Assembly: GCA_028819345.1 (NCBI GenBank)
Contig: JAPPLW010000004.1
Location: 3,530-67,529, forward strand
DNA: 64,000 nucleotides
Source: a bacterium
GTDB lineage: Bacteria > Actinomycetota > Acidimicrobiia > Spongiisociales > ZC4RG35
Reading direction: 5' to 3'
Numbering within the stretch: position 1 is the first letter of the stretch; each line of letters starts with the position of its first letter. Made by a program: the position numbers and the translations under genes. This document shows, one piece after another, positions 12,159 through 62,440 of the stretch. The notes below the pieces were generated by a model. The model did no database searches and had not been told where the DNA came from. It saw only the letters and a program-made list of their open reading frames with translations.

Positions 12159-12953
12159 CTATTCATCTCTCAGGACTTCGGAGACTTCTCCGGTCAACTC
12201 GGCGAACGCCGGGTCGAATCGAAGGTCCAGATCGCGGGGGTAGGGAAACGGGATACTGAAAGACTTGAGTATGCGCCCGGGCCGGGAGGACATCACCAGG
12301 ACGTCGGTTGACAGGAACACCGCCTCGTACAGGTTGTGGGTGATGAACACCGCCCCGAAACCGGCGTGGGCGAAAATCCGCAGCAACTCCAGGTTGAGGT
12401 ATTCCCGGGTGATCTCATCCAGGGCCCCGAACGGCTCGTCGAAGAAGAAGAGAGGAGGATCCAGGGTGAGGGACCTCGCCAGAGAAACCCTCATCTTCAT
12501 CCCGCCCGACAATGCGGCGGGGTAATGCCGGTTGAACCCGCTCAGGCCCACCAGTTCGATGGCGTCCTTGGCTCTCTTACGCCTCTCGCTCCGATCGAAA
12601 CCGCGCAGTTCGCAGAAGAGTTCCACGTTCTTCTGAACGGTCCGCCAGGGCAGGAGAGTGGCGTCCTGGAAGACGTAACCCAGGTTCCCCTCGGACCGGC
12701 GGACTTCACCGGAGCTGGCTGAGAGGAGGCCCGATCCCATTCTGAGCAATGTGGACTTACCGCAGCCGGAGGGGCCGACGACCGTCACGAACTGGCCCGG
12801 TTCCACCTTGAATGAGACACTGTCCACCGCATGGGTCCCGTCGGGGAAGGTCTTGCTGACGTTCTCGAAGGAGATCAGGGTGGAGGAAGAACCGCCGCCC
12901 CGCGTGTCTCCATGGTTCGAGGGCTGGATGTTTGAGATTTGTCGGTCCCCCAT
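12159..12953 (-). CDS. ABC transporter ATP-binding protein (NitT/TauT family)
   Basis: Walker A GPSGCGKSTLLRM, signature LSGGMKMRVSLARSL, Walker B LFFFDEPFGALD. Confidence 0.9.
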   Translation of the reverse strand: MGDRQISNIQPSNHGDTRGGGSSSTLISFENVSKTFPDGTHAVDSVSFKVEPGQFVTVVGPSGCGKSTLLRMGSGLLSASSGEVRRSEGNLGYVFQDATLLPWRTVQKNVELFCELRGFDRSERRKRAKDAIELVGLSGFNRHYPAALSGGMKMRVSLARSLTLDPPLFFFDEPFGALDEITREYLNLELLRIFAHAGFGAVFITHNLYEAVFLSTDVLVMSSRPGRILKSFSIPFPYPRDLDLRFDPAFAELTGEVSEVLRDE

Positions 12954-14171: not shown

Positions 14172-15622
14172 TGGTAGAGAACGGTGGTCAGGGGGATATC
14201 TGTTCTGCCCAGGCCGGCCCGGGTGCGGATGCCTGCGGCCCTCCTCCGGGCTTCGACGTGCAGTGCAGCCTCGTCGATGCCGATCACCCGGCCATTACGA
14301 AAGCAGGGCCGACCGTCTACCCAGGTCTCGTGCACCGAAGCCGTCGACGCCGACCAGACCAGCGCCGAGAGGGGGTCGCCGTAGGGTATCCACTCGGGGT
14401 GGTCGAGGTCCCACAACACGAAGTCGGCCTTCTTTCCCACCTCCAGCGAGCCGATCTGATCATCCATGCCCAGGGCCTTGGCCCCATCGATGGTGGCCAT
14501 ACGCAGCGCCTGGCGCGCCCCCACCAGCGAAGCATCCATGCGGGCATCCTTGAACAGACCGGCGGCGAGGTGCACCTGGCGGTGCAGGTTGAGATTGCCC
14601 GCGGCGGAGACGCCGTCGGTCCCCAGGCCCACCGTCACTTCCGCCTCCATCATCTCGGGGTACTTTCCGATCGAGGTGGCGCCTTTGGCGAGTTTCAGAG
14701 AAGTGGACGGACAGAAGGCCACCTTGGTCCGATGGGAGGAGAGAAGATCCACCTCCTCCGGCGTCACCGCCACCGCATGAGCGATCACCAGGTTGTCGCC
14801 CAAGCCTCCTGCTCGCGCCACCCTGGTGATCGGCCAGCTTCCATGGCGTCGTTGGGAGATCTCCGCTTCGGCCAGGGAGGTGGCGAGGTGGTAGGTCGTG
14901 CCCACCCCCAGTCTCGCCGCCAGTTCCCGCGCGCCCACATGAAGCTCCAGACTGCAGGGCTCCTTCCCCTCGATGTTCACCCACACCCCGAGTCGCCCCC
15001 CGGCCGACCCGTTCCAGGCGGAAACCGTCTCGGCCAGGGCTTCAAGCGCCGCCTCGGCGTCGGGAAAGAAGTGATGATCGACTATCTCGGTCGACCAGCC
15101 TCGGGGGATCTCGGTGGGTTTGACGTCGGCGGCGTGGCGGCCGGTGATACCCCGGATCCCGGTCTGTTCCACGGCGGAGGCCACCGGCGCCGGGTCGTTC
15201 TGGGCGCCCATGTCCAGAAAGCAGGTGGTCCCTCCCCGTAGCATCTCCGCGGTCCCCAGGAGCGCCCCCACCTCTTCGTCCTCGGGACTGACATGGGCGT
15301 AGAAGGGCTTCGCCCAGTGGAACACCCAGGTGCGGGTGTCGATCACATCGGGGAACACCGCCCTGGACAGCGTTTCGGAGAGGTGGACGTGGGAGTCAAC
15401 CAGTCCGGGAGTCAGTCCCAAGCGCCGACCATCCAGCCGATCCACGGGTTGGCCCCCGGCGCCCGAGTGCATCCTCTTTTCAACCTCGGCCGTGGCGCCC
15501 AAGTCCTTTATCCGATCGCCTTCTATCAGGATTGCTCCGTCGGTTATCACCCGGTCATCCCGGTCGCAGGTTATGGCGAATTCCAGGCGTTCTATAAGGA
15601 TCAATGAGGTCACGGGGATCAC
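14168..15622 (-). CDS. amidohydrolase, Atz/Trz / SsnA / MTA-SAH-deaminase-like family
   Basis: PGLVDSHVHLSE (HxH), GTTCFLDMG, TYHLATS, HAVAVTPEE and GLGTDGVSA are typical of the chlorohydrolase/aminohydrolase subgroup. Confidence 0.8.
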   Translation of the reverse strand: MIPVTSLILIERLEFAITCDRDDRVITDGAILIEGDRIKDLGATAEVEKRMHSGAGGQPVDRLDGRRLGLTPGLVDSHVHLSETLSRAVFPDVIDTRTWVFHWAKPFYAHVSPEDEEVGALLGTAEMLRGGTTCFLDMGAQNDPAPVASAVEQTGIRGITGRHAADVKPTEIPRGWSTEIVDHHFFPDAEAALEALAETVSAWNGSAGGRLGVWVNIEGKEPCSLELHVGARELAARLGVGTTYHLATSLAEAEISQRRHGSWPITRVARAGGLGDNLVIAHAVAVTPEEVDLLSSHRTKVAFCPSTSLKLAKGATSIGKYPEMMEAEVTVGLGTDGVSAAGNLNLHRQVHLAAGLFKDARMDASLVGARQALRMATIDGAKALGMDDQIGSLEVGKKADFVLWDLDHPEWIPYGDPLSALVWSASTASVHETWVDGRPCFRNGRVIGIDEAALHVEARRRAAGIRTRAGLGRTDIPLTTVLYQ

Positions 15623-15647: not shown

Positions 15648-16538
15648 CTAGGAAGGGTATGTGGCCCGATAACGCATGTACAAGTAGTCCCCCGCTTTGC
15701 GAACCGACAGGATCTTCATCCTCGGTATGTCATCGGGGAGCCAACCGGTTCCCTCCACCAGGCTGGGCCTTGGGTTGCCGGGACTCTCTCCCACCACCAG
15801 CGGCGACCGGGTGATGAAGGGCTCATGCATGATCCCGGCTTTGAGGAGGGCACCGTATAGCGTGGCGCCGCCCTCGCACAGGAGGAACTCGACACCGTAA
15901 TCTCCGGCCATTATGCGGGCGTAGCGCTCCAGGTTCACTCCGCTGCTTCCAAACTCGAGGATGTCGATCTTGCCGGCCGGCCGGACCGTGGCGCGAATTT
16001 TCCGGGCGCCGGCCCTGGTGGTGGCCACCACCACGTGGGCGTCCTCCATCGAGAACACCTTGGCCTCGGTTGGAAGGTTGCCGTCGAGGGTTATGTAGGA
16101 GATGATGGGGAGTTCCGAGCGGTTCTCGTGCCGGCGGAGGGCGGCGAAGGCATCCTTGTCTCCGGGATAGATGTCTTCGGATGTGTTGACGTGGCTGGGT
16201 TCGGCTCGGAGGGTTCCCTCGCCTATGACCACGGCGTCGGCTCGGGCGCGGAGCAAGCCCATCAGCCACACATCGTTGTCGTTGAACCCCGAGATCGGGC
16301 CGCCTCCCCGGTGGTCGGGGTGGTTGAAGGCCACTCGGCCGTCATGAGAGGTGACGAAATTGGCCGCCAGCAGGGGCAGGCCCTTGACAGGAGGCTTGAG
16401 TCGCAGGGGACCGCCGTACACCGCTGCGAGGTCAGGGTGCAGTTCCAGTCCCTCTCCGTCGGAGGCCGTTTCCTCATCGAACAACGTCTCGAACCGAAGA
16501 GCCGGTCCATGTACCGAGATGGGGGTGTCTTGTGTCAT
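15648..16538 (-). CDS. RibD C-terminal-domain (dihydrofolate-reductase-like) reductase family protein
   Basis: NFVTSHDGRVAF, DVWLMGLLRARADAVVIGEGTL and LLCEGGATLYGALLKAG resemble the pyrimidine-reductase domain of RibD. No deaminase domain is present. Confidence 0.7.
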   Translation of the reverse strand: MTQDTPISVHGPALRFETLFDEETASDGEGLELHPDLAAVYGGPLRLKPPVKGLPLLAANFVTSHDGRVAFNHPDHRGGGPISGFNDNDVWLMGLLRARADAVVIGEGTLRAEPSHVNTSEDIYPGDKDAFAALRRHENRSELPIISYITLDGNLPTEAKVFSMEDAHVVVATTRAGARKIRATVRPAGKIDILEFGSSGVNLERYARIMAGDYGVEFLLCEGGATLYGALLKAGIMHEPFITRSPLVVGESPGNPRPSLVEGTGWLPDDIPRMKILSVRKAGDYLYMRYRATYPS

Positions 16539-16654
16539 TCTTCTAGACCTGCTCCTGGTGATTGTCTACCGGGAGTGAACGATACAGGGTCCACCCAGAG
16601 GCCTGGCTGGCCGCCGGTTGTTACGATTCCATCGACCACCCGGAGGATCCCAGG

Positions 16655-17770
16655 ATGAGAGAACAGGTGATGGCCCGCCTTCGCCCGGCCTTGGAGGAAC
16701 AAGGCTGGGATGGTCTGGTGGTTTCCTCTCCGGAGAACTTCGCCTATCTGGCCGGGTTCGTTGTTCCCTCCCACCCGCTGATGCGCTGGCGCCATGCGGC
16801 GGTCGTGCTTCCGGCTGGCGGTGATCCGGCAGTGATGTGCATCGGGGTCGAAGAGGCCATGGTCCGCCAGAGGACCGGAGCCGCCGAGGTGGCGGTGTGG
16901 GACGAGTTCGGCGACGATCCGATGGCCTGCCTTGCCGGGTTGTTGGAGCGGCTGGGCCTGAGTCGGGGTCGGTTGGGCGTGGAACTGGGATACATGCCGG
17001 CGGCGGATTTCGCCCGTCTCCGGGAAGCAGCGCCCGGTGTGGAGTGGGTGGCGGCCGACCGATGGTTGGGGAGGCAGCGGCAGGTCAAGACCCCGGAGGA
17101 ATTGGCGCTCCTGGCCCGCTTGTCCCGTATCTCCGACGTCTCCATCGGCGCGGCGCTCGGGGCGGTGAAGGCTGGGGACACCGAGATGGAGATCGCCGCC
17201 GCGCTCACCGACGGCATCTACCGGGGTGGCGCCGAGGACTTCAAGCTGATGATCGTTGCCACCGGTCCCCGCAGCCAGTTGGCCAACGTTGGTCCTACCG
17301 AACGGGTCCTCGAGGAGGGGGACGTGTGCAGGGTGGAGATCTTCGCGGTGGCGGAGGGGTACCACGCCGGAGTATGCCGCACCGCCGTCGTAGGGTCGCC
17401 ACCACCGGAGGCGGTCGGGATCTGGGCCAATCTGGTGGAATGCCGCGATGTCTTGCTGGACGCCATCCGCCCGGGAGTCTCCAGCCGGTCGGTGTGGGAC
17501 CGCTTCGAGGCCCTGTGCGGCCCCCTAGGCCTGCCGCTCTTCTCCTTCGTCGGTCACGGGATCGGACTATCCCTGCACGAGCACCCCTACCTGAGTCCCC
17601 GCCACGACCAGGTGCTGGAAGAGGGAATGGTGTTCGGAGTGGAACCCCTGATCTACGACACCGGCCACGGCTTCGGGCTCCAACTCAAAGACATGGTCGA
17701 GGTAACCGCCCAGGGAGCAAGGCTCCTGTCGGATGTAAACCACAACCGGGAGTTAATCACCGTGGGTTGA
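16655..17770 (+). CDS. M24-family protein (creatinase / Xaa-Pro peptidase fold) with substituted metal ligands
   Basis: ORF 16562..17770; ATG 16655 gives MREQVMARLRPALEEQGWDGLVVSSPENFAYL (creatinase_N-like). Pita-bread motifs are GDVCRVEIF, GYHAGVCRT, VGHGIGLSLHE, GMVFGVEP and GLQLKDMVEV. Confidence 0.8.
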   Translation: MREQVMARLRPALEEQGWDGLVVSSPENFAYLAGFVVPSHPLMRWRHAAVVLPAGGDPAVMCIGVEEAMVRQRTGAAEVAVWDEFGDDPMACLAGLLERLGLSRGRLGVELGYMPAADFARLREAAPGVEWVAADRWLGRQRQVKTPEELALLARLSRISDVSIGAALGAVKAGDTEMEIAAALTDGIYRGGAEDFKLMIVATGPRSQLANVGPTERVLEEGDVCRVEIFAVAEGYHAGVCRTAVVGSPPPEAVGIWANLVECRDVLLDAIRPGVSSRSVWDRFEALCGPLGLPLFSFVGHGIGLSLHEHPYLSPRHDQVLEEGMVFGVEPLIYDTGHGFGLQLKDMVEVTAQGARLLSDVNHNRELITVG

Positions 17771-17879: not shown

Positions 17880-18476
17880 CTACCCGGAGAAGAACCTCGG
17901 CAGGGTGCGTTCCACCTTTTCCAGGAATCTCGCCCGCTTGCGAGGCGAGTCCTTGTTCATGTTGTTCAGATCCAGCCACTTGGTGCGGGCGCCCCGGGCG
18001 AACATGACTCGGTGGCCCCGCTTCAGGACTTTCCTGGCGGGGTTGCCCACCGCCTTCACGTACCACCAGGGTGATCCGGTGGTGGTAACGGCCGCCACTC
18101 TGCGGATGCCCAGTATCCCGGGGATGATGGGGCCTCCCTCTTCTCTGAGCCCGAATGCCACGCCGGGGATCCACACCCGCTGGAGCCATCCGGTGAGGAT
18201 GGCCGGGAACCCGAAACTCCAGGTGGGGAAGACCAGGAGGAGGCCCTCGGCAGCGCGAAGTTGTTCCACGTAGGGTCGGACGTTGGCGACGTTGAGTTCC
18301 AGGTCGTGGTAGTCGATCCGCTCCTGGGCGGATAGCGCCGGGTCGAACTCCTCGGCGTAGAGATCGAGGAGATCGATGTCGTGCCCCGCGGATTGCAGTG
18401 CGCTCACCGCCCGGTCCTTGAGGGCCGCCGAGTAGCTGTCGGCCAGAGGATGGGCCCACACCACCAGAATTCTCAT
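17880..18476 (-). CDS. NAD(P)H dehydrogenase (quinone) / flavodoxin-like-fold FMN reductase
   Basis: MRILVVWAHPLADSYSAAL, LLVFPTWSFGFPAILTGWL and the ~198 aa length fit the NQO1/KefF-like flavodoxin_2 family. Confidence 0.8.
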   Translation of the reverse strand: MRILVVWAHPLADSYSAALKDRAVSALQSAGHDIDLLDLYAEEFDPALSAQERIDYHDLELNVANVRPYVEQLRAAEGLLLVFPTWSFGFPAILTGWLQRVWIPGVAFGLREEGGPIIPGILGIRRVAAVTTTGSPWWYVKAVGNPARKVLKRGHRVMFARGARTKWLDLNNMNKDSPRKRARFLEKVERTLPRFFSG

Positions 18477-18537: not shown

Positions 18538-19884
18538 TCAGTCGGGTCGGGTCACACACAGGCCGTGGCCCAATGAATCGGGATCCACCTCTCCGTTGTC
18601 GAAGACCACGCTCCCGCGGCTGACCGTCGTCACCGGCCATCCCCGTAGCTCCATCCCCTCATAGATGCAAGTCCCGTTGCCGGTGTGGCGGACCGTGTCC
18701 ACCTGGTCGGGATCGACCAGCACCAGGTCGGCGTCGGCGCCGGGGATCATCGCCCCCTTGCGGGGGTAGAGGCCGAAGCGGCGCGCCGGCCCGTATGAAT
18801 TCATCCTGACCAGGTCGGAAAGGGAGAGTCCCCGGCGATGCACGCCGTGCTCCATGAGCAGGGCGAGCTCCCACGGAAAAGAGACGATTCCGGGCTTCTC
18901 CTCCCACAAGTCCTCGCCCTTCTTGGGGAAGAAGGGAACATGGTCGGATCCGATCGAGCCCACCTGGCCGGCCAGCATCCCCTCCCAGAGGCCCTCCTGC
19001 TGCTCAGCGTCCCGCAGGGGAGGAGAGATCTTGGCCCGCATGTCCAGGTCGGGGTCGTAGGCGGTGCGCACCAGATAGTGGGGACAGGTCTCGATGGTGA
19101 CGTCCACTCCCCGGGCGCGAGCCTGGGCAGCCAGTCTGGGTCCGGCCGCCACGCTGGTGTGCACCACGTACAGGGGACATCCGGTGAGTTCGGCCAGAAA
19201 GATCATCCGGGCGATGGTCTCCTCCTCGCAGAATGCGGGCCGGGACTCTGAGTAGGCGCCGAGGTCCTGGCGCCCGGTGGCCTGGATCGATCTCTTTATC
19301 CACCGGGCGATCTCGGTGTTCTCGCAGTGAACGGAGATCACTCCCTTGGGGAGACGGCGGATCTTGGTCATGGCGGTGTACACCCAGCCGTCGTTGGCGG
19401 GCACTATTCCGATCGGGTTCTCCTGTTCGTATCCGAAGTAGCACTTGAAGGACTGCACCCCGGTCTCGGTGGCGATGCGGGGGATCTCGGCGATATGCTC
19501 GGGGCGCTGGATACCGAAGTGGAACCCGAAGTCGATGCGGGCCACCGCCTCTCCCCGTCGCCGGCGGTCCCGGTAGAAGGGTATGTATGAGGGCTCGAGG
19601 TTCCTTATGTACAGGAGGACGGTGGTGATGCCACCCCGGGCGGCCGCCGCGGTCTCGGTGTCCATGTCCTGGTCGTAGGGATAGTTCACTCCCAGGTGGC
19701 AATGGGGGTCGATCACCCCCGGCATGAGCGCCAGCCCGTCGGCGTCGATCATCCTCCGACCGCGCGGCAACTCCCCGTTCTTGCCGACGGCCGAGATCTT
19801 CTCTCCCATGATGGACACCCCTCCATGGAACTCTCCGTTGTGAGTCACCACTCGGGCGTTGCGGATCACCAGGTCAGCCTTCAT
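18538..19884 (-). CDS. dihydropyrimidinase / D-hydantoinase-type cyclic amidohydrolase
   Basis: ORF 18538..19929; ATG 19884 (MKADLVIRNARVV) overlaps the upstream stop (ATGA). Contains GVIDPHCHLG (HxH), VQSFKCYFGY (carboxylated-Lys region), ISVHCEN, LYVVHTS and GSDHVP. Confidence 0.85.
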   Translation of the reverse strand: MKADLVIRNARVVTHNGEFHGGVSIMGEKISAVGKNGELPRGRRMIDADGLALMPGVIDPHCHLGVNYPYDQDMDTETAAAARGGITTVLLYIRNLEPSYIPFYRDRRRRGEAVARIDFGFHFGIQRPEHIAEIPRIATETGVQSFKCYFGYEQENPIGIVPANDGWVYTAMTKIRRLPKGVISVHCENTEIARWIKRSIQATGRQDLGAYSESRPAFCEEETIARMIFLAELTGCPLYVVHTSVAAGPRLAAQARARGVDVTIETCPHYLVRTAYDPDLDMRAKISPPLRDAEQQEGLWEGMLAGQVGSIGSDHVPFFPKKGEDLWEEKPGIVSFPWELALLMEHGVHRRGLSLSDLVRMNSYGPARRFGLYPRKGAMIPGADADLVLVDPDQVDTVRHTGNGTCIYEGMELRGWPVTTVSRGSVVFDNGEVDPDSLGHGLCVTRPD

Positions 19885-20780
19885 GCCACTCCTTCTATTC
19901 GTTCGATCCTCTTGCGTATCCCGTCCCACTGCGAGGCGCCCGCCGTAACCGGCGCACGGGCGCCCAGGCCCCTGGCCCAGGAGGTTATGTGCCCCAACTC
20001 GGCGGCTCTGTCCAGGTCCACGCCTCCCGGCGGCGCCGCCAGGTCCATGACCAGGCTCCCGGAGGGCAGGGCATCCAGCACATCCTTTTCCACAACCGGG
20101 ACGGGGACCGTGGAGAGGAGCATGTCAAGGCGGTGAGCATGCTGCGGAAGCTGATCCAGGGGCACCGCTTCGGCGCCGGTCACCTCAGCCTCCGCCCGCT
20201 GGACGGGGTTGCGGGCCGCCACCAGGACCTCGGCGCCCAGGAGCACCAGGGTGCGGGTGAGGAGGGATCCGACGGTCCCCTGGCCGACCACTCCTATCGT
20301 CGAGCCGTGGATAGTGATCTCGGTCAACTCGATGATTCTCTGCAGGGCGCCCTCCACGATGGTGGGGCCGCGGCGCAGCATCAACTCCCGGTCCTGCTCG
20401 TACTCCACGATGCCCACTCCGGCCGCCTGGGCCTCCGCCCGGAGGCGGTGATCGGCGGTCCCCAGTATGAGGTGAGCACCGGCAGCCATCCTTCCCAGCA
20501 CTTCCCGGCCGATCACGATGGGTCCGGGGGCATGGGGTGCGTAGAGAGATCCGTCCTCCGCCATTCCGGGGATGGGCAGCAGACCGTAATGGGCGTCCCG
20601 CAACACCTCGTCGGGGTCTCGGCACGGCGTCACTCCGGCGATCCCCTGCGCGGGCCAGGGAAACCCGTAGGCGCGCACCGCCGCTCCGGTGATCGCGGCC
20701 TGACGGGCTATCTCCCGCTCGCGGTGGTCGCCTCCCACCACGGCGATCACCCTTTCGCTCCAGGGAACTGTCACCTCCAC
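19881..20780 (-). CDS. dipicolinate-synthase-subunit-A-like (DpaA/SpoVFA family) NAD(P)-binding dehydrogenase
   Basis: VIAVVGGDHRE..., GPTIVEGALQRIIELTEITIHGSTIGVVGQGTVGSLLTRTLVLLGAEVLVAARN, LVMDLAAPPGGVD and GLGARAPVTAG parallel the B. subtilis SpoVFA pattern as I remember it. No DpaB-type flavoprotein gene is adjacent. Confidence 0.65.
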   Translation of the reverse strand: MEVTVPWSERVIAVVGGDHREREIARQAAITGAAVRAYGFPWPAQGIAGVTPCRDPDEVLRDAHYGLLPIPGMAEDGSLYAPHAPGPIVIGREVLGRMAAGAHLILGTADHRLRAEAQAAGVGIVEYEQDRELMLRRGPTIVEGALQRIIELTEITIHGSTIGVVGQGTVGSLLTRTLVLLGAEVLVAARNPVQRAEAEVTGAEAVPLDQLPQHAHRLDMLLSTVPVPVVEKDVLDALPSGSLVMDLAAPPGGVDLDRAAELGHITSWARGLGARAPVTAGASQWDGIRKRIERIEGVA

Positions 20781-20783
20781 CTC

Positions 20784-22454
20784 TTACCAGTATTCCTCGT
20801 AGTGGACGTTTGCCTTCACCCCCTGCTGGGGAAGCGTAAACCCTCGCTCGGCCAGGAGTTCGGCTACTCCGAGCGTCTCCCCGAAGACCGGTCGGCCGTC
20901 CACCCATTCAGGCACCCCGATCATCGCCGGGTTGCCGCACATGAAAACCTGCAGGCGGGAGGGGTCGAGTTCCAATCCGGTTTCCGCGGTCAGAAGGTCA
21001 TCTCCGATGAGTTGCTGGATGCGCATCCTCAGAGCGCCATGGGCGTCCTGGCGGGTGACCAGGGGGAGGTAGCGATAGTTGGGAAAGCGTTCTTCCAGGG
21101 CCCGGTGGCGAGCCACGTATCCCAGGTCCGCGGCGTAACGGCACGACACGACCGACACCACCCGTCCCTGATGTCCCTTTCGAAACAGCTCCACCACCAT
21201 GGCGTTGTGGGGCGCCTCCCCTGTCCCGGTGGCCAGGAAGAGCACATCGGAGAAGGGATCGGTCACCGTGGAAAGGGTGTAGCGGCCGGCCATCCGGGGA
21301 CCGAGGTAAATCCGGTCCCCCTCGTGCTTGAGGGCCAGTCGCGGCGTCAGGGCCGGCAGGCGGTCGACAGTGGGAGGGACCAACACGACGTAGAACTCAA
21401 GGGACCCTTCGTATGCGGGATCGGTGAGGTACCCTCGGGCGTCGAAGATCCGGGATGAGATGGAGTAGGACCTTCTCACCAGCCGCTCCGCCCCTGCCAG
21501 GCGGTCCTCGGCCCCGTCCGCTCTCGGCTCCCAATAGCCCAGGCCGAGAGTGGCGTACTGTCCCGGCACCAGGGGCGAGTCGCGCTGGTCGGGCCGTACC
21601 CTGACTATCCACAGGTCGGGGTTTATCCGGCGGAACCAGGTGATTGTGGCGTTGTAGTAACGACTCTCCAGGTCGAAGAGGTGCCCGGCCTGGACCGTGG
21701 TGACGGACGGGGCGGCAGGCGGCAGGGAAGGAAAGTGCCGGGACCGCATTCTCTCCCAGGCTTGATCGGCAGGAACGGTGACCACTCCCTCCAGATGCTC
21801 TTCGGCGCCCTGTTGGTGGAGGAGCAGGTGAATGGGGAGAGCGCCCTTCTCCACCTCTATGCCTGAATGGTCGAGCACCTGAGAAGCCGATGAGTCGGGT
21901 TCCGAGAGGAGAACGTTGTCGAATTGGAGGTCCGGCGTTTGACGACTGTCGAAGGCCACCATCGGGTAGCTATGCAGGTCATAGACCCGGGTGGGCCGGG
22001 CCCTCCAGAAGACCGTGATCTGGCGTTGGGCCTCCAGGCGCCGGACCATTCGTCTGGCCAGAAAGGACATCTTTCCGAACTCGGTGTGATGAATGCACAG
22101 GACCACCTTGGCTCCCTGCGCCAGAAGTTCGAAGGTCCACTCCACCGGTTCGTCGCCTTCGCCTATCACAACCACGTCTCCGGGAGGCCCCTCTATCTGG
22201 TCGGGATGCGTGTGGGCCCGGTGAGCGACCGAGGGATCTACCGAGATTCGGGGAGAACGCTGCTTGAGCGGGGGATAGGACAATCCCAACACCACTGACC
22301 GAGCGGCGACCGGGCCGGTGGAGGTCTCCACTACCAGCAGGGGTCCCGGAGCCTGCCGAACCCTGCGGGCGACAGTGTCGTAGCGCACCGTTACCCCCGG
22401 CGCCTCGAAGCGACTGGGGTAAACCTGGGGATCGGAAGGGGAGAGCACCAGCAC
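20784..22454 (-). CDS. fusion: degenerate two-dinucleotide-binding (thioredoxin-reductase-like) N-domain + plant-type ferredoxin-NADP reductase (FNR/Fpr) C-domain
   Basis: C-terminal half has RRSYSISS (FAD RxYS), VLFLATGTGEAPHNAMV, VFMCGNPAMI and the terminal HYEEYW. N-half has VVVIGEGDEPVEW. The reading frame stays open upstream to ~22616 and encodes WEIVVIGDRLAGLSLA, but no ATG/GTG/TTG occurs there, so the true 5' end is uncertain. Confidence 0.7.
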   Translation of the reverse strand: MLVLSPSDPQVYPSRFEAPGVTVRYDTVARRVRQAPGPLLVVETSTGPVAARSVVLGLSYPPLKQRSPRISVDPSVAHRAHTHPDQIEGPPGDVVVIGEGDEPVEWTFELLAQGAKVVLCIHHTEFGKMSFLARRMVRRLEAQRQITVFWRARPTRVYDLHSYPMVAFDSRQTPDLQFDNVLLSEPDSSASQVLDHSGIEVEKGALPIHLLLHQQGAEEHLEGVVTVPADQAWERMRSRHFPSLPPAAPSVTTVQAGHLFDLESRYYNATITWFRRINPDLWIVRVRPDQRDSPLVPGQYATLGLGYWEPRADGAEDRLAGAERLVRRSYSISSRIFDARGYLTDPAYEGSLEFYVVLVPPTVDRLPALTPRLALKHEGDRIYLGPRMAGRYTLSTVTDPFSDVLFLATGTGEAPHNAMVVELFRKGHQGRVVSVVSCRYAADLGYVARHRALEERFPNYRYLPLVTRQDAHGALRMRIQQLIGDDLLTAETGLELDPSRLQVFMCGNPAMIGVPEWVDGRPVFGETLGVAELLAERGFTLPQQGVKANVHYEEYW

Positions 22455-22655
22455 CCGTTCCAGGCCGCCGGCGGCGGCTTCCGACGCCAGGGACAGGCCG
22501 GCCAGCCGGTCACCTATGACTACGATCTCCCAGACGAAGGAGGGCTGCGGGGTGTCGGGCGTGTCTGTTGGGACGATGCTGTAAAGGCTATCGGGATCCG
22601 CTGTAAGGTGTTCGGCCTAAATTTAGGTGCGAAGGCCCGAAAAAGGAGCAGTGTC

Positions 22656-22850
22656 GTGCCGGTCGTCACCGTGGAGATGTGGGAAGGAAGGACCGTCGAG
22701 CAGAAGCGTCGGCTGGTCAAGGCCATTACCGAGGCAATGGTGGAACACGCCGATGCCCGACCCGACGCCCTGCATGTGATCATCCACGACGTTCCACGGG
22801 AGAGTTGGGGATTGGCCGGGGTTCTCGGTCCGGACCGCACCGACGTATGA
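22656..22850 (+). CDS. 4-oxalocrotonate tautomerase family protein
   Basis: ORF 22608..22850. GTG 22656 lies 7 nt after AAGGAG and gives (M)PVVTVEMWEGRTVEQKRRLVKAITEAMVEH, the Pro-1 tautomerase signature at ~64 aa. Confidence 0.75.
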   Translation: MPVVTVEMWEGRTVEQKRRLVKAITEAMVEHADARPDALHVIIHDVPRESWGLAGVLGPDRTDV

Positions 22851-23842
22851 GCGTTGCGGTCGGCCTGGACGCGCTTGCCCCCGATTCGGCGGCGCTCCTG
22901 GTCATCGACATGCAGAACGCCTTCTGCCACCCGGAGGGCACCCTGGGAGAGTCAGGGGTGGACGTGGGTCCGGTCCAAGAGGTCTATGAACCCATAGGCG
23001 GCCTGGTCGAGGCGTTCAGAGGATCCGGGATCCCGGTCATCTGGACTGTCCAAGAACATCTTCAACCGGACCGGAGCCGCCAACAGAAACGCCTGCCATC
23101 CCACACCGAGCGTCGTTCGAGGGTGGCGGCCCTGGCCGGCACCTGGGACGCGGAGATCGTTGAGGAATTGGCCGGATGGGCGGATGAACCGACCATGGTG
23201 GTGCGCAAGCACCGGTTCGGGGCGTTTTACGAGACGCGTCTTCAAACGCTGCTGGGGATGCTGGGGGTGCGAACCCTGTTCATCGCGGGGGTTACTCTCA
23301 ACGCCTGCGTCGAGACCACCATACGGGAGGCCTACCTGCGGGACTATGACGTGGTGGCGGTCACCGACTGCATCGCCGGAGTGCGGCCGCAATGGGAGCC
23401 CTCGGCCCTGGAGGTCTGGGCACAGTACCTGGCTCACCTGGCTACCTCCCGGGAGGTGACCGACTGGCTGGCCGAGAGCCGCCGGCCCGTGGTCAGGGGG
23501 ATCCGGCACGTGTTGTTGGAGACCACCGACCTGGACGCCGCGGAGCGCTTCTACGTGGACCTCCTGGGATTCAAGGTGAGGAACCGCACTCCGTTCCGCG
23601 ACGGCAGAAGATTCATCAGCACCGAGGAGGGCCTGGGACTGACCGAGGGGGGCGCAGGCAAGGGTGGACAGGTGGATCACATCGCCTTCGAGGTTGACGG
23701 CGTTGCGGAGTGGGAGCGGGTGGTAGCCGACGCCGGGCACCCGATCGTCCGTCCGCTCGGCCCCGGGCCCTACGGCCTAACCGTGTACGTGGCAGACCCT
23801 GACGGCAACGAGATCGAACTCTACGAGACGGAGGGTCCGTGA
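22847..23842 (+). CDS. fusion: isochorismatase-family cysteine hydrolase (RutB / N-carbamoylsarcosine-amidase-like) + VOC (glyoxalase/dioxygenase-fold) domain
   Basis: ORF 22679..23842; ATG 22847 overlaps the tautomerase stop (ATGA). LLVIDMQNAF (Asp), VVRKHRFGAF (Lys) and IAGVTLNACVETT (Cys) form the triad. The C-terminal IRHVLLETTDLDAAERFYVDLLGF...VDHIAFEV...DPDGNEIELYE is VOC fold. Confidence 0.8.
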   Translation: MSVAVGLDALAPDSAALLVIDMQNAFCHPEGTLGESGVDVGPVQEVYEPIGGLVEAFRGSGIPVIWTVQEHLQPDRSRQQKRLPSHTERRSRVAALAGTWDAEIVEELAGWADEPTMVVRKHRFGAFYETRLQTLLGMLGVRTLFIAGVTLNACVETTIREAYLRDYDVVAVTDCIAGVRPQWEPSALEVWAQYLAHLATSREVTDWLAESRRPVVRGIRHVLLETTDLDAAERFYVDLLGFKVRNRTPFRDGRRFISTEEGLGLTEGGAGKGGQVDHIAFEVDGVAEWERVVADAGHPIVRPLGPGPYGLTVYVADPDGNEIELYETEGP

Positions 23843-25029
23843 AGATAACCGCTGCCACCGTGTACATAGTGGCGCTGCCCACTCGACGCCACCACTCGTG
23901 GGCCTCCAAGATGACCGCTCCGATCGGTCGTCATGCCATCCTCCGGCTGCGGACCGACGAGGGACTTGAGGGATGGGGGGAGGCGCCCGCCGGCATCACC
24001 TGGGGCGGGTCGGCGATGCGGTACTACGGCGAGTCGCCCGAGACGGTGCGGATCGTGGCCCTCGACTACCTGCTTCCGGCCGTGGGGGGCTGCGACCCGC
24101 GTGAGATCGCGGTGGTCCACGCCCGGATGGACAGAGCCGTGAAGGGCCACCCCTATGCAAAGGCGATGATCGACATGGCCAGCCACGACCTGGCAGGACG
24201 GGCCATGGGCGTGGGAGTCTCAACCCTCCTCGGGGGATCTCACCGTCGAGGGATAGAGTTGGCCCACTCATTGGGGATAATGCCGATTGAACGCTGCCTG
24301 GAGGAGGCGGAGCAGGCGGTTTCGGAGGGCGCCCTCACCATCAAGTGCAAGACCGGCCTGGACCCCTTCCGGGATGTGGAGTTGGTGCGTCGCCTGCGGG
24401 AGTTGGTGGGCCCCGGGATCAAGATCAGGGTTGACGGCAACGAGGGGTATTCCCATGTCGCCGAGGCGGTGAGGGTAACCCGCGCCCAGGAGGAATATGA
24501 CATCATGCTGTGCGAGCAACCGGTGGCCGGCGCTGAGGGCCTGGCGGCGGTGGCCCAAAGGATCGAGGCGCCGGTGATGGCCGATGAGTCGGCTTGGACC
24601 GTCGAGGACATCTGGGAGTTGGCCGACTTGGGCGCTGCCGACTACATCTCGTGCTACGTCACCAAGCCGGGAGGGCTGTTCCGCGCCCGCCAGCAGGCCG
24701 AGACCGCCCGTCGCCTGGGGATGCTGTGCGACATAGGAGGCTCGATTGAGACCGGGATCGGCAACGCCGCAAACCTGGCTCTGGGAGCGGCGGTGGAGAA
24801 CGCCTCCCTTCCCAGCGTTTGTCCGGTATCCGGCCCGGAGGGCAGTGCCCGCCCGGAGATAGCGGGCATCTACTACACCGACGACTTGATCTCAGCCCCC
24901 TTCCGTTTCGAGGACGGTCGGGTGTCGGTCCCCGAAGGTCCGGGGCTGGGGGTGGAAGTCGAAGTGGCCAAGGTGGAGAAGTACTCGGTGGCGGAGGCGG
25001 TCAGCCTCGACCTGGGTGAGGATGGGTGA
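23839..25029 (+). CDS. mandelate racemase / muconate lactonizing enzyme (enolase superfamily) protein
   Basis: LRLRTDEGLEGWGEAP, KCKTG, IRVDGNEGY, LCEQPV, ADES and CDIGGSIETGIG match the MR/MLE capping and barrel motifs. The GTG start overlaps the upstream stop (GTGA). Confidence 0.85.
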   Translation: MKITAATVYIVALPTRRHHSWASKMTAPIGRHAILRLRTDEGLEGWGEAPAGITWGGSAMRYYGESPETVRIVALDYLLPAVGGCDPREIAVVHARMDRAVKGHPYAKAMIDMASHDLAGRAMGVGVSTLLGGSHRRGIELAHSLGIMPIERCLEEAEQAVSEGALTIKCKTGLDPFRDVELVRRLRELVGPGIKIRVDGNEGYSHVAEAVRVTRAQEEYDIMLCEQPVAGAEGLAAVAQRIEAPVMADESAWTVEDIWELADLGAADYISCYVTKPGGLFRARQQAETARRLGMLCDIGGSIETGIGNAANLALGAAVENASLPSVCPVSGPEGSARPEIAGIYYTDDLISAPFRFEDGRVSVPEGPGLGVEVEVAKVEKYSVAEAVSLDLGEDG

Positions 25030-25038
25030 GAGAGGTCC

Positions 25039-26148
25039 ATGACCCGGGTAGTCGTTATGGGGGGCGGAGCGGGAGGCATGGCGGCGACAGTCGACCTGAC
25101 CCTGCGGGGATTCGATGTGGTCTGGTGGCGACGCACCGTCCCGAAAGAGCCGCCCACCGGGTTCCGGCTTGCCTACCGGGGCGTGTGCGGGGACGGTGCG
25201 ATGCCCGTGACATGCACCGACGATCTGGCCCCGAGCCTTGCCGGAGCGGGAGGCGTGCTCGTGTGCCTGCCATCCACCGCCCATCGGCACATAGCCCGAC
25301 TCCTGGCCGAGGCCGGTTGTACGGCGCCGGTGGTGCTGGCCCCCGGCCACCTGGGCGGCGCCCTGGAGGTGGCCAAGGTGTGGCGCGACGCCGGGATGGA
25401 AGGCGTGCCTCCTCTGGCGGAGTGTTCCACGCTTCCCTACACGGTGCGGGCCTTCCCGGTGGACGCTGACGCAGGTGGGGACGGCCGGGCAGCGCAATGG
25501 GGAGTGAACATCACGGGTGCCGCCGCCCGGGTGCCGGTTGCCTGCCTCCCCGGGGGCGAGGCGGCTCTCCGGTTGGCCGGGCGGCTTTACCCCGGAGCCG
25601 TCACCCTGCCCGATGTCCTGGCGGTGGGACTGGCGGAGGTCAATATGGTTCTCCACCCTCCCGGAGCGGTTCTGGGAGCGGCCTGGGTAGAGGCCACGGG
25701 CGGGGACTTCCGCTTCTACGTGGACGGTATGACCCGGGGAGTGGCCTCGGTGATGGGGCGCCTTGACTCTGAGCGCCTGGCGGTGGCCGAGGCCTTCGGA
25801 TACCGCCTGGGGTCTCTGATGGAGGAGATGTCGGCGATCGGCACGGTGGAACCGGACGCCGACCTGGGGGACATACAGAGCGCCATTTCCAGTGGGAGCG
25901 CCAACGCCCGGATAATGGCGCCTGACTCTCTGGGCCACCGGTACTACACCGAGGACTTCGGGTATGGACTGTTGCCTCTGGTGGAGTTGGCCAAGGTGGC
26001 GGGGGTGGCTACCCCGGTGGCTCAAGCGCTGCTCAATCTGGCCTCAGCGGCAGGCTTGGAAGAGGCGATAGCCGGAGGCCGCACCCTGGAGCGGCTGGAC
26101 CTGGAGGGTCTCTCGACCGACGAGATCATCGCCCGGATCCGGCCATAG
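25039..26148 (+). CDS. NAD/NADP octopine/nopaline (opine) dehydrogenase family protein
   Basis: N-terminal VVVMGGGAGGMAATVDL Rossmann segment and C-terminal YYTEDFGYGLLPLVELAKVAGVATPVAQALLNLAS are typical of the Octopine_DH helical domain. Confidence 0.75.
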   Translation: MTRVVVMGGGAGGMAATVDLTLRGFDVVWWRRTVPKEPPTGFRLAYRGVCGDGAMPVTCTDDLAPSLAGAGGVLVCLPSTAHRHIARLLAEAGCTAPVVLAPGHLGGALEVAKVWRDAGMEGVPPLAECSTLPYTVRAFPVDADAGGDGRAAQWGVNITGAAARVPVACLPGGEAALRLAGRLYPGAVTLPDVLAVGLAEVNMVLHPPGAVLGAAWVEATGGDFRFYVDGMTRGVASVMGRLDSERLAVAEAFGYRLGSLMEEMSAIGTVEPDADLGDIQSAISSGSANARIMAPDSLGHRYYTEDFGYGLLPLVELAKVAGVATPVAQALLNLASAAGLEEAIAGGRTLERLDLEGLSTDEIIARIRP

Positions 26149-26321: not shown

Positions 26322-28589
26322 CTAAGCGGTAGGGCTCTCCTCCATGCGTCGCCCGATGGCGTCCCGCCAGGTGCGGGAGGCCACCGCCAGGCTGACGGCG
26401 CCGCGCACCCCGCCGCTCTCGAGGGAGATCTCCCGGCCGCCGAAGGTGCCGATCTGGGAGGCCGGAAGACCGTGTCGGGCGGTGATGGCGGTCAAGTGAG
26501 GAACGTCCCGCGGGGCCACCGCGGCCAGAAGCCTGTTCGGATCCTCGCTGAAGAGGCTGCGCCAGTCCCGGAAGGTAACGTTCACTCCCACCTGCGAGGC
26601 GATGGCTATCTCGGCCGCGGCCAGAGCCAGGCCGCCGTCTGAGATGTCATGCAGTACGGGCGTCACGCCTCCTTGCACCAGGTCCAGAGAGGTCTCGATC
26701 GCTGCCCGGCAGAGGGCGAAGTCGGCGGCGGAGGGGCGACCCCCCAGGTGACCGAAGGCGATCTTGGCGAAAGAACTTCCCGCCAGGTTTACCGCGTTAC
26801 CCAGTCCCAGCAGCCACAGTTCCATGCCTTCTTCGGCCCGGTCCATGCCTGGAGGGAACTCGGGGGCCGGATCGGCGACTCCAACCACCCCCACCACCGG
26901 GGTGGGATGGATGGGATACCCGTCGACTTCGTTGTGGAAGGAGACGTTGCCTGAAACCACCGGAAGGCCCAGCAGTTCGCAGGCTTCGGCCAGACCTTCC
27001 ACCGTCTCGCGAAACTGCCACATCACATCCGGGCTGTCGGGGCTCCCGAAGTTGAGATTGTCCACCACCGCCTTGGGTCGGGCGCCGGAGATGGCCACGT
27101 TCAGCGCCGCTTCGCAGACTAGCCTTCCCGCTCCGCGGCGAGGGTCGAGGTAACAGAGTCTCCCGTTGCCATCCGTGGACACGGCTACCGACTTGGAGGT
27201 GCCGGGGATCTGCACCAGGGCATGGTTCTGTCCCGGGCCGACCGTCACGTCCTCCCGTGGTTTGGTGGGGTACTGCTCGTATATCCAGCGCTTGGAAGCC
27301 AGGTGGGGGTCGTCCAGTAGGTCCAGGAGGGCACCTCCCAATGCCGGCCTTCGTAAGAACCGGATGCTGTTGGACCAGAGGTTCTCCATCCATCCCGGCT
27401 CCCCGATCTGATGGTGATCGACCACGGCTCCCTCGGCCAAGGACCGGATCGGCGCCTCCATCACCACCTCGCCCCGGCTCATGACCCGGAGCGTCTTCGA
27501 AGAGACGACTCTCCCGATCACCGAAGCCTCCACCCCCCGTCCGCGGGCGGTCTCCAGCACCTCATCCACCGAGCCGGGTTCTGCAAACGCCAGCATCCTC
27601 TCCTCCGTCTCCGCAGTCAGCACACCGGCGGCGTCGATCTCCTCGGGCCGGACGTGTACGGCGGACAGGTCGAGGTCGATCCCGACGTCCGAACGGGAAG
27701 CCGGCTCCGTCACCGCGCTGGCCAGTCCGGCGCCCCCCAGGTCCTGGAGACCCTTGACCAGGCCGAGGCGGGCCAGTTCCAGGCACACCTCCAGCAGTCG
27801 ACTCGCCAGTTCTGGATCCCCCTCCGGGATGATCTGAGGGGAGGAGTCGGCGAGACTGCGTGCGCCGGTGGTGGCGAGAGTCGCCACCCCTCCGACGCCG
27901 TCCGGCCCGGTTGGGGAGCCCAGCAAAACCAGCCTGGTTCCTTCGTCTCCGGCCCTTCCCAACACCAGTTCCTCCCGCCGGAGGATCCCCACGCACATCA
28001 CGTTCACCAGGGGATTGTTGAAATAGCTTTCCGAGAAGGCCACCTCGCCGCCCACGATCGGAACCCCCACATCCCTGCCGTATCCGGCCATCGCTCCCAC
28101 CACTTCCCGCAGTCTGAGCCGGCTCTCCGGTTCGCTCAGAGGCCCGAAGCGGATCTGATTCAACAGGGCCACCGGCCGGGCCCCCATGGCCGCCACGTCC
28201 CTGAGAACTCCTCCCACTCCCGTGGAGGCGCCCCGGCGGGAGTCCACGTTGGAAGCGTGATTGTGGCTCTCGATCCGCAGGGCCAGCAGCCATCCGTCAC
28301 CCAGGTCTATCACCCCTGCGTTCTCTCCAGGCCCGACCACCACCCACGGGGCGACGGATGTGAGCCGGCGCAGGTAGGGACCCGAGGACTTGTACGAGCG
28401 GGCTTCCGACCACATTCCTGCGTACACTGCCAACTCCACCGCGGAGGGGGCGCGACCCAGGTCGCGACGGATCGCCTCCAAGTCGGGGTCCGTCAGTCCC
28501 AGAAGTTGATGGAGGGGCGCCGGCGCTTGGCTCTCGGCCTCCCCCGGATCGGCGACCGTAGACCCGGGCGCCTCTGGGCCTTCTGTCAC
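26322..28589 (-). CDS. purL: phosphoribosylformylglycinamidine synthase subunit PurL-like protein (divergent)
   Basis: 755 aa with small-PurL architecture: GENAGVIDLG, RIESHNH, TGVGGVLRDV..MGARP, QDLGGAGL, and the second half VSGNVSFHNE. Several normally invariant motifs are altered (see findings). No purS/purQ adjacent. Confidence 0.8.
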   Translation of the reverse strand: MTEGPEAPGSTVADPGEAESQAPAPLHQLLGLTDPDLEAIRRDLGRAPSAVELAVYAGMWSEARSYKSSGPYLRRLTSVAPWVVVGPGENAGVIDLGDGWLLALRIESHNHASNVDSRRGASTGVGGVLRDVAAMGARPVALLNQIRFGPLSEPESRLRLREVVGAMAGYGRDVGVPIVGGEVAFSESYFNNPLVNVMCVGILRREELVLGRAGDEGTRLVLLGSPTGPDGVGGVATLATTGARSLADSSPQIIPEGDPELASRLLEVCLELARLGLVKGLQDLGGAGLASAVTEPASRSDVGIDLDLSAVHVRPEEIDAAGVLTAETEERMLAFAEPGSVDEVLETARGRGVEASVIGRVVSSKTLRVMSRGEVVMEAPIRSLAEGAVVDHHQIGEPGWMENLWSNSIRFLRRPALGGALLDLLDDPHLASKRWIYEQYPTKPREDVTVGPGQNHALVQIPGTSKSVAVSTDGNGRLCYLDPRRGAGRLVCEAALNVAISGARPKAVVDNLNFGSPDSPDVMWQFRETVEGLAEACELLGLPVVSGNVSFHNEVDGYPIHPTPVVGVVGVADPAPEFPPGMDRAEEGMELWLLGLGNAVNLAGSSFAKIAFGHLGGRPSAADFALCRAAIETSLDLVQGGVTPVLHDISDGGLALAAAEIAIASQVGVNVTFRDWRSLFSEDPNRLLAAVAPRDVPHLTAITARHGLPASQIGTFGGREISLESGGVRGAVSLAVASRTWRDAIGRRMEESPTA

Positions 28590-60542: not shown

Positions 60543-62440
<1,898 letters not shown>

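Follow-up and report, generated by a model that had tools for sequence, protein, structure and literature searches.

A DpaA-like dehydrogenase gene coupled to a hydantoinase-like gene in a putative catabolic cluster from Acidimicrobiia

We analyzed a 64-kb stretch of contig JAPPLW010000004.1 (assembly GCA_028819345.1; the whole stretch is called the window below), in which three co-oriented genes encode an FNR fusion flavoprotein, a dehydrogenase resembling the dipicolinate synthase subunit DpaA and a hydantoinase-like cyclic amidohydrolase. These three genes make up only one section of a cluster with about 13 genes in the window. In the reading that we moderately favor, the DpaA-like and hydantoinase genes belong to an ancient catabolic cluster that has spread widely by horizontal transfer and serves the breakdown of an imported N-heterocycle of the nucleobase, hydantoin or cyclic-ureide class, and they do not encode a dipicolinate synthase, while the FNR fusion and a Flavodoxin_2 protein are clade-specific additions. 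A catabolic role on an N-heterocycle had been put forward in the original prediction for this locus, and it fits the neighboring genes and transporters.

The operon, the DpaA-like protein and the distribution of the cluster

Three co-oriented minus-strand open reading frames (ORFs) were confirmed in the order originally described: the FNR fusion, a 3-nt gap, the DpaA-like gene, an ATGA overlap and the hydantoinase-like gene. The stop codon of the FNR fusion (20784..22526; TAA at 20786..20784) is separated from the next start in the sequence TAA-GAG-GTG, a spacing that implies co-transcription and probably coupled translation of the two genes. The DpaA-like gene (19881..20780) starts with GTG and encodes 299 amino acids; an alternative GTG at 20774 would yield 297 residues, the length of the database homologues. 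It overlaps by 4 nt with the hydantoinase-like gene (18538..19884, 448 amino acids). The mechanical ORF of the latter extends to a GTG at 19929, and the start ATG 19884 matches the 448-residue length of the homologue in locus L001.

The middle gene had been predicted to belong to the DpaA family and not to the generic 2-hydroxyacid dehydrogenases, and NCBIfam profile scores bear this out. The 299-residue protein consists of a DpaA_N domain (Pfam, residues 12–127, 75.6 bits, cut-off 29.2) and an NAD(P)-binding Rossmann domain, whose region from residue 150 to 254 is matched by the Pfam families 2-Hacid_dh_C, AlaDh_PNT_C and Shikimate_DH. The motifs GQGTVG and DLAAPPGG are found at residues 166 and 246, respectively. 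The closest structures in the PDB are two DpaA entries, 2RIR (8.7e-31, aligned residues 12–291) and 3D4O. An ordinary D-2-hydroxyacid dehydrogenase was ruled out, as the models for 2-hydroxyacid dehydrogenases, PdxB and glyoxylate reductase gave at most 25 bits compared to 193 bits for the DpsA model NF006162. Neither this score nor the 174 bits obtained with TIGR02853 reaches the respective equivalog cut-off (261 and 319.65). Four other cluster members, from Shinella, Aminobacter, an uncultured alphaproteobacterium and a metagenome-assembled genome (MAG) of Gaiellaceae, score 193–205 bits with NF006162, also below 261; a control, the DpsA of the Firmicute Monoglobus, scores 298 bits. The DpaA-like proteins of the cluster are 52–63% identical between phyla versus about 30% to a Firmicute DpsA. 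Judged by these comparisons, the 299-residue protein is a DpaA-family member of a separate, presumably non-sporulation subfamily.

In RefSeq/GenBank the protein from the window and its proteobacterial relatives carry the label "dipicolinate synthase subunit DpsA". Two such RefSeq entries, on plasmids of Shinella (L088 14010..14900) and Aminobacter (L090 12001..12891), reach 193–194 bits with NF006162, whose cut-off is 261, and no subunit B accompanies them. The use of this name in non-sporulating bacteria looks like a systematic over-annotation.

The hydantoinase-like protein is roughly equidistant from allantoinases, dihydropyrimidinases and L- and D-hydantoinases. It scores 286 bits with both the allantoinase model NF004839 (cut-off 631) and the dihydropyrimidinase model TIGR02033 (cut-off 393), 275 bits with AllB (cut-off 358) and 206 bits with ErtD (cut-off 600), and no equivalog cut-off of a named specificity is reached. 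The best match in the PDB is the L-hydantoinase 1GKR (7.9e-61). The ligand set of the binuclear metal site is complete, with His61, His63, Lys147, His186, His242 and Asp314 located in the motifs DPHCH, SFKCY, VHCEN, VVHTS and GSDHV. Profiles, PDB match and metal ligands together point to an intact member of the family, as expected for the ring-opening cyclic amidohydrolase that had been predicted downstream of the DpaA-like gene.

A database search returned 1365 relatives of the DpaA-like protein at E ≤ 1e-10. In the GTDB species-representative genomes the protein has 220 relatives, and 80 of these loci were taken for a synteny survey with tblastn. Genes were also called in three metagenomic contexts, with results that agree with the survey. 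ORFs in high-GC loci were called by means of the difference in G+C content between third and second codon positions. The counts given below refer to 57 informative species-level loci in which the DpaA-like gene is flanked by 4 kb or more on either side. The nearest hosts are Acidimicrobiia MAGs, whose DpaA-like proteins are 70–92% identical to that of the window, which places the window in this class and agrees with the actinobacterial origin assumed beforehand. Other actinobacterial hosts are Thermoleophilia/Gaiellales, Actinomadura, Amycolatopsis, Nakamurella and Microbacterium; further hosts are Xanthobacteraceae, Bradyrhizobium, Rhodoplanes, Aminobacter, Burkholderiales and one Opitutales genome.

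The most constant companion of the DpaA-like gene is a tautomerase, which is present in 56 of the 57 loci and had been overlooked when the three genes were described as an operon unit; the three genes themselves are real, but make up only part of the larger cluster. An enolase-superfamily (MR/MLE) protein is encoded in 43 loci, an opine dehydrogenase family protein (ODH) in 41 (in 26 of them directly upstream of the DpaA-like gene), an M24 hydrolase in 38 and an isochorismatase fusion in 37. The hydantoinase gene occurs in 36 loci and always lies immediately downstream of the DpaA-like gene. Two deaminase-type amidohydrolases, AMH1 (TRZ/ATZ-type) and AMH3 (cytosine-deaminase-like), are found in 32 and 27 loci, a RibD_C protein in 15, a Flavodoxin_2 protein in 14 (all in the Acidimicrobiia clade) and an FNR fusion upstream of the DpaA-like gene in 13. 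As 36 of the 57 genomes share the DpaA-like/hydantoinase junction and 13 share that between FNR fusion and DpaA-like gene, the arrangement of the three genes is, on comparative grounds, not due to chance. Conservation of the trio as neighbors thus holds for at least 13 species-level genomes but is limited to one Acidimicrobiia lineage: all FNR-fusion loci (13 of 57, or 16 of 80 when shorter loci are included) come from the single clade that holds the window.

In the 36 loci with a hydantoinase gene the isochorismatase fusion is present in 35, ODH in 35, the MR/MLE protein in 34 and AMH3 in 27. The 21 hydantoinase-free loci contain the isochorismatase fusion and the TRZ/ATZ-type amidohydrolase in only two cases each. 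Hence, the hydantoinase and the RutB-like amidase of the fusion travel jointly, as a putative module for ring opening and decarbamoylation. All 21 hydantoinase-free loci keep the tautomerase, which makes the DpaA-like protein and the tautomerase the invariant pair. An SMP-30 lactonase was considered as a substitute for the hydantoinase in alphaproteobacterial DpaA-like/tautomerase loci and was discarded, since it occupies no fixed place with respect to the DpaA-like gene.

The conserved unit comprises about ten genes, for the tautomerase, the RutB-like isochorismatase–VOC fusion, the M24 hydrolase, the MR/MLE protein, the opine-dehydrogenase-like protein, the DpaA-like protein, the hydantoinase, the two deaminase-type amidohydrolases and a transporter of the NMT1-type ABC or NCS1 class. 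In Gaiellales, Thermoleophilia, Actinomadura and Amycolatopsis the order on a single strand is tautomerase, isochorismatase fusion, (M24 hydrolase), MR/MLE, ODH, DpaA-like, hydantoinase. The clade of the window has the block from tautomerase to ODH inverted, with the FNR fusion at the junction. Versions on plasmids of Shinella and Aminobacter additionally contain GntR/FCD regulators, RidA, a COG0523 GTPase and NMT1-type binding proteins; a DAO-type oxidoreductase is found in the Bradyrhizobium version, and an aldehyde dehydrogenase together with an NCS1 cytosine/purine/uracil/allantoin permease in that of Actinomadura. On plasmid pAM01 of Aminobacter sp. MSH1 (L090 6830..10743) genes for a D-amino-acid dehydrogenase, malate synthase G and a heme-binding protein lie between the two halves of the cluster, an insertion that hints at glycine or glyoxylate as an end product. 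A protein of about 227–234 residues is encoded between the hydantoinase and tautomerase genes of proteobacterial clusters (L088 16240..16923; L090 14231..14914; L084 12216..12920). It matches no Pfam or NCBIfam model, is called "resolvase" in one record and is absent from the window.

The absence of DpaB from the locus, as stated originally, was confirmed. With the Monoglobus DpsB as query, tblastn gave no credible match in the window (best E = 0.11 over 36 residues), and no DpsB was found within 10 kb of the DpaA-like gene in any of 87 loci (E ≤ 1). In the Firmicute control locus dpsB comes immediately after dpsA, with spoIVB as a neighbor. Of the 57 informative genomes, 44 lack both an FNR fusion and DpaB, and most carriers also have no other flavoprotein gene adjoining the DpaA-like gene. 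Because DpaB is absent from the 87 loci and most carriers have no neighboring flavoprotein, the subfamily would work without a dedicated flavoprotein partner in most hosts.

The FNR fusion protein

The protein encoded upstream of the DpaA-like gene had been described as a thioredoxin-reductase-like domain joined to an FNR domain. Profiles, a PDB match and the folds of AlphaFold2 (AF2) models agree with this description, with weaker scores for the N-domain. The predicted local distance difference test score (pLDDT) was 85.5 for the whole protein and 89.9 for the separately modeled N-domain. The C-terminal half matches Pfam NAD_binding_1 (39 bits) and Fpr in the PDB (2.9e-17). In a Foldseek search its modeled fold superposes on the Fpr proteins of E. 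coli and Klebsiella with target-normalized template-modeling scores (TMt) of 0.85–0.88 (E = 1.5e-18). The resemblance to subclass II (Fpr-type) FNR extends to the motifs RRSYSIS at residue 381 (RxYS) and GTGEAP at residue 464 (GTGxAP) and to the C-terminus YEEYW with its terminal Tyr-Trp, while the score with the Fpr equivalog NF008178 amounts to 69.4 bits versus a cut-off of 390.

For the N-terminal half, Pyr_redox_3 gives 17.9 bits, below its cut-off of 30. The top Foldseek matches of the model are a low-Mr thioredoxin reductase (6e-13), a thioredoxin-reductase-like FNR and YpdA, all with E about 1e-12 and template-modeling scores (TM) of only 0.33–0.37. The first dinucleotide-binding motif reads GDRLAG (residue 35) instead of GxGxxG; other cluster-linked copies have GDRLA[GA], with rare variants. 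No CxxC is visible in the translated N-terminal half of the protein from the window. Unlike both Fpr and the thioredoxin-reductase-like FNR proteins, the predicted protein thus combines the two modules in one chain, with an N-domain that has neither a canonical GxGxxG nor a CxxC motif.

The coordinates reported earlier for the three genes stand except for the 5' end of the FNR fusion. The frame is open to 22616, but only because an in-frame TAG (22619..22617) precedes this position, which holds no start codon. No ATG, GTG or TTG occurs in this frame between 22616 and a GTG at 22454. The L001 homologue (75% identity) has an ATG start at the equivalent of about 22600, which has been lost in the window and in its four closest relatives, L008, L009, L010 and L024. 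We compared the codons of the window, L008, L009 and L010; L024 was left out due to an indel. Codons 28–54, upstream of GTG 22454, contain 35 synonymous versus 9 non-synonymous differing codons (ratio 0.26), in line with the remainder of the N-domain (0.28–0.35). In codons 1–27 the numbers are 11 and 19 (ratio 1.73), i.e. there is no purifying selection. Since codons 28–54 are under purifying selection, translation is expected to start upstream of 22454, and the real start is probably a non-canonical ATC, either at 22526 (ATG in L024 and in protein P0121) or at 22577. L010 and L024 have each gained a different ATG start.

Both domains of the FNR fusion are under purifying selection, with non-synonymous to synonymous ratios of 0.16–0.35. 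Homologues are numerous in other Acidimicrobiia (43–48% identity), where the N-domain is still recognized as Pyr_redox_3 by Pfam. Two stand-alone contexts were inspected, and both are unrelated to the cluster: one gene is located by a LigD-type ligase gene, the other by a CoA-transferase gene. In the stand-alone proteins (L006 7001..8764; L007 7001..8782; proteins P0142-P0240) the first motif is mostly GG[ST]xAG. Among themselves the stand-alone fusions share 41% identity in the N-domain and 65% in the C-domain, the cluster-linked ones 69% and 86%; between the two groups the values drop to 32% and 60%. The N-domain is the faster-evolving half in every comparison. Two loci of the clade deviate: in L013 (8193..9988) the gene is split by a frameshift at the junction of N- and C-domain, which could be a long-read assembly error, and in L022 (8793..10001) the approximately 1.2 kb between the tautomerase and DpaA-like genes contain no detectable FNR fusion. 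Our literature search found no description of thioredoxin-reductase-like and Fpr-type FNR modules in one chain, and the fusion is apparently an abundant, undescribed protein family of Acidimicrobiia.

Judging from its distribution, the FNR fusion is a lineage-specific accessory that would be dispensable for the core chemistry. Its most likely role would be to pass on electrons from NADPH in the form of the pathway found in this clade.

Predicted pathway and alternative explanations

The transporters and the three amidohydrolase-superfamily enzymes of the cluster suggest that the substrate is an imported heterocycle of the nucleobase, hydantoin or ureide type. Based on the chemistry of the respective families we propose the following sequence of events. 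The two deaminases would take off exocyclic amino groups, and the hydantoinase would open the cyclic ureide to an N-carbamoyl (ureido) acid, from which the RutB-like cysteine hydrolase would remove the carbamoyl group. The resulting enamine/imine or enol/keto product would be handled by the tautomerase, together with RidA where this is present. DpaA acts on dihydrodipicolinate, and opine dehydrogenases reduce Schiff bases. The DpaA-like enzyme could accordingly carry out an NAD(P)(H)-dependent reduction or oxidation at a C=N or C=O bond next to a carboxylate, close to the chemistry on the dihydrodipicolinate substrate of DpaA, and the opine-dehydrogenase-like enzyme might catalyze a second step of the same type. 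We favor a position of the DpaA-like step after ring opening, since pairs of DpaA-like and tautomerase genes persist in 21 hydantoinase-free genomes. In the clade of the window the FNR fusion, which heads the DpaA-like/hydantoinase operon, and the Flavodoxin_2 protein would add NADPH-linked electron transfer.

Several observations weigh against this proposal. All members of the cluster stay below every NCBIfam equivalog cut-off, and the individual steps are deduced from what the superfamilies are known to catalyze. In all 36 cases the DpaA-like and hydantoinase genes are tightly coupled by ATGA, which is just as compatible with two successive reactions on the unopened ring. Both the 3-nt gap and the contact between FNR fusion and DpaA-like gene have been kept across approximately 70–92% identity of the DpaA-like protein, which speaks against a mere bystander role of the fusion in its clade. 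Furthermore, the set of M24 hydrolase, MR/MLE protein and ODH would also fit an imino-acid or opine-type substrate without a ureide ring. A route for the degradation of creatinine or creatine, to which the cytosine-deaminase-like, hydantoinase, N-carbamoylsarcosine-amidase-like and creatinase-like proteins could have been assigned, was not adopted: the M24 protein best matches prolidase and ectoine-hydrolase models, the amidase is nearest to RutB, and the MR/MLE protein, ODH, the DpaA-like protein and the tautomerase would be left unexplained.

The cluster resembles several known systems in its logic and, by its sequence matches, is a member of none, since no equivalog cut-off is met. With the DpaA/DpaB (SpoVFA/SpoVFB) proteins of endospore formers it shares the DpaA_N plus NAD(P) Rossmann architecture, the DLAxxPGG and (I)VEG motifs and the relatedness to the PDB entries 2RIR and 3D4O. 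It differs from them in the low sequence identity, the scores below both equivalog cut-offs, the absence of DpaB and of a sporulation context, the constant partnership with a 4-OT tautomerase and the catabolic hydrolases in the neighborhood. Hydantoin utilization (the "hydantoinase process") is paralleled by an amidohydrolase closest to the Arthrobacter L-hydantoinase 1GKR, a predicted carbamoyl-removing enzyme, an MR/MLE protein related to N-acylamino-acid racemases and transporters of the nucleobase/hydantoin type. In contrast to that system, the candidate for decarbamoylation is an isochorismatase-type cysteine hydrolase with a VOC domain and not an M20 or nitrilase carbamoylase, and the cluster has two NAD(P) oxidoreductases, a tautomerase and two deaminases in addition.

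In the Rut pathway (RutA-G) a ureido-amide hydrolase is likewise followed by enamine/imine handling and then by reductases, so that the RutB-like hydrolase, the tautomerase (with RidA in proteobacterial versions) and the reductases of the cluster would parallel RutB, RutC and RutE/YdfG. Unlike in that pathway, ring opening would be hydrolytic, by a hydantoinase. General scans, none of them aimed at RutA, gave no match to a RutA-type monooxygenase model among the scanned genes of the window, and the similarity to RutB is limited to 91 bits versus a cut-off of 378. Reductive pyrimidine catabolism (dihydropyrimidine dehydrogenase, dihydropyrimidinase, beta-ureidopropionase) offers the same proposed logic of ring redox chemistry, dihydropyrimidinase-type hydrolysis and decarbamoylation. 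The cluster differs from it in that no homologue of PreT/PreA or dihydropyrimidine dehydrogenase is present and that its DpaA-family dehydrogenase usually occurs without a flavoprotein and persists without the hydrolase. A full-text literature search found no publication on the DpaA-like/hydantoinase cluster or the FNR fusion, and a search for creatinine and sponge symbionts returned general papers only.

Three other explanations were weighed against the proposed catabolic cluster. That the gene is a true dpsA whose product makes dipicolinate would agree with the RefSeq/GenBank name and with DpaA being the best match among both profiles and structures. Its score of 193 bits (up to 205 in relatives) against a cut-off of 261 and 298 bits for a true DpsA, the missing subunit B in 87 loci, the greater identity among cluster members across phyla than to the Firmicute protein, and a neighborhood made up of hydrolase and transporter genes and not of spo or dap genes all contradict it. 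The lineages that carry the DpaA-like gene, including Acidimicrobiia, are moreover not known to form endospores, and we regard dipicolinate synthesis as next to impossible here. The original prediction had instead paired the DpaA-like protein with the FNR fusion as a substitute for DpaB; this two-component dehydrogenase would perform redox chemistry on an N-heterocycle before the hydantoinase opens the ring. Co-orientation, the 3-nt gap and the ATGA overlap are what one would expect of such a system, as are the preservation of the trio in its clade, the retained RxYS, GTGxAP and YEEYW motifs of the FNR domain and the absence of DpaB. The strong divergence of cluster-linked from stand-alone fusions would also be expected after specialization. 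However, the fusion is absent, with no other flavoprotein in its place, from 44 of the 57 genomes, including 23 of the 36 in which the DpaA-like/hydantoinase pair occurs. Within the clade the gene is missing in L022 and frameshifted in L013, the copy in the window has lost its canonical start codon, the dinucleotide motif of the N-domain is degenerate (GDRLAG, no CxxC), and homologous fusions stand alone in unrelated contexts. Action of the DpaA-like enzyme on the intact ring prior to the hydantoinase is further weakened by the DpaA-like/tautomerase pairs without a hydantoinase. As a general stand-in for DpaB the fusion thus fails, and we consider the two-component system quite improbable.

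The opposite view, that the FNR fusion is a general-purpose redox protein of Acidimicrobiia which came to abut the cluster through an inversion or insertion and has no role in the pathway, also has points in its favor. The family is widespread in this class at 43–48% identity in unrelated neighborhoods. In the cluster, the gene marks the very point at which the inverted tautomerase-to-ODH block meets the DpaA-like/hydantoinase pair, and some members of the clade have lost it or carry a frameshifted copy. This view is at odds with the 3-nt spacing, with an adjacency that has been kept over wide divergence of the DpaA-like protein and with the purifying selection on both domains. We therefore see it as possible, though hardly probable. 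The catabolic cluster with a clade-specific electron-transfer addition remains the reading that we prefer.

A bolder version of the preferred reading, which we think unlikely as it stands, is that the DpaA-family dehydrogenase, the 4-OT tautomerase and, in two thirds of the carriers, the coupled hydantoinase and RutB-like amidase constitute a new flavin- and oxygenase-free route for the degradation of a nucleobase- or hydantoin-like heterocycle. This route would have spread horizontally across Actinomycetota and Proteobacteria, and one Acidimicrobiia clade would have equipped it with a dedicated double-FNR electron-transfer partner, much as DpaA uses DpaB. If true, a further catabolic pathway for pyrimidines or ureides would stand beside the reductive, oxidative and Rut routes.

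The label "dipicolinate synthase subunit DpsA" is attached to genes in hundreds of non-sporulating bacteria. These genes form a separate subfamily within a conserved, predicted catabolic cluster, so the label is misleading. The pathway is directly testable, as the cluster is present in cultivable strains of Aminobacter, Shinella, Bradyrhizobium, Actinomadura and Amycolatopsis, among them B. diversitatis, Actinomadura yumaensis and Amycolatopsis jejuensis. Work on it could uncover another way of degrading N-heterocycles as well as the first reaction of the DpaA fold outside sporulation.

Genes surrounding the operon in the window

Downstream of the hydantoinase gene, at a distance of 61 nt, follows the gene for a Flavodoxin_2/NAD(P)H oxidoreductase-like flavoprotein (17880..18476, minus strand, Flavodoxin_2 100.8 bits). 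A hydrolase with Creatinase_N (60 bits) and Peptidase_M24 (133 bits) domains is encoded next on the plus strand (16655..17770), with 84% identity to L001 by tblastn. A minus-strand ORF of 276 amino acids (16535..17365) has no Pfam match and is an antisense shadow of this gene; high-GC antisense ORFs are common in the window. The following genes lie on the minus strand. A RibD_C-type protein of the pyrimidine reductase family (15648..16538) scores 51.9 bits with RibD_C and 65 bits with the NCBIfam model of that family, below the cut-off. AMH1 (14168..15622, Amidohydro_1 185 bits) overlaps with AMH3 by 4 nt; its best NCBIfam models, 5'-deoxyadenosine deaminase, TRZ/ATZ and 8-oxoguanine deaminase, all remain below cut-off. 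AMH3 (12966..14171) is matched by Amidohydro_3/1 and, with 97–128 bits, by NCBIfam models of the cytosine deaminase subfamily, again below cut-off. The ATPase (12159..12953, ABC_tran) and permease (11352..12158, BPD_transp_1) of an ABC transporter are syntenic in relatives. A weak signal for an NMT1/THI5-like binding protein was obtained in the ORF 9011..11377; NMT1 is clear in the Shinella and Actinomadura clusters.

On the other side of the FNR fusion, and divergent from it, a block of plus-strand genes starts with the 4-OT family tautomerase (22656..22850, 64 amino acids, Pfam Tautomerase 76.5 bits with a cut-off of 22, 94% identity to L001 by tblastn). Its proline in the catalytic position comes straight after the initiator (VPVVTVEMWEG), and its length corresponds to that of 4-OT subunits of about 60 residues. 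An ATGA overlap links it to the gene of the isochorismatase-like (RutB/biuret-hydrolase-like) amidase with a glyoxalase/VOC domain (22847..23842, Isochorismatase 136.9 bits, Glyoxalase 56.8 bits). The isochorismatase domain is nearest to RutB, biuret and triuret hydrolases and an N-carbamoylsarcosine-amidase-related protein, with 90.9 bits for RutB (TIGR03614, cut-off 378) and 79.9 bits for BiuH, both below cut-off, and a PDB match to RutB (1.2e-19). It is followed by the enolase-superfamily protein of the muconate-cycloisomerase subgroup (23839..25029, MR_MLE_C 161 bits, MR_MLE_N 60 bits), which matches MLE and N-acylamino-acid racemase in the PDB. ODH, an oxidoreductase of the opine (octopine/nopaline) dehydrogenase family (25039..26148, Octopine_DH 128 bits), has CENDH 1BG6 as PDB match (1.9e-36). 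The next gene (26322..28589) encodes AIR-synthase-related (AIRS) domains with a weak FGAR-AT linker match (27.1 bits, cut-off 26.6); we interpret it as FGAM-synthase-like (purL-like) and as the border of the cluster.

No riboswitch or other RNA leader was detected at Rfam gathering thresholds between 9000 and 27000. Beyond the transporter end of the cluster lie genes of the ornithine cyclodeaminase/mu-crystallin family (5816..6751, minus strand) and of the GCS2 glutamate-cysteine-ligase family (6954..8111, plus strand). At the far end of the window, from 56000 to 64000, the AT skew is strongly negative (-0.14 to -0.30), unlike in the rest of the window; this region contains the plus-strand ORFs 60338..62440 and 62451..63995.

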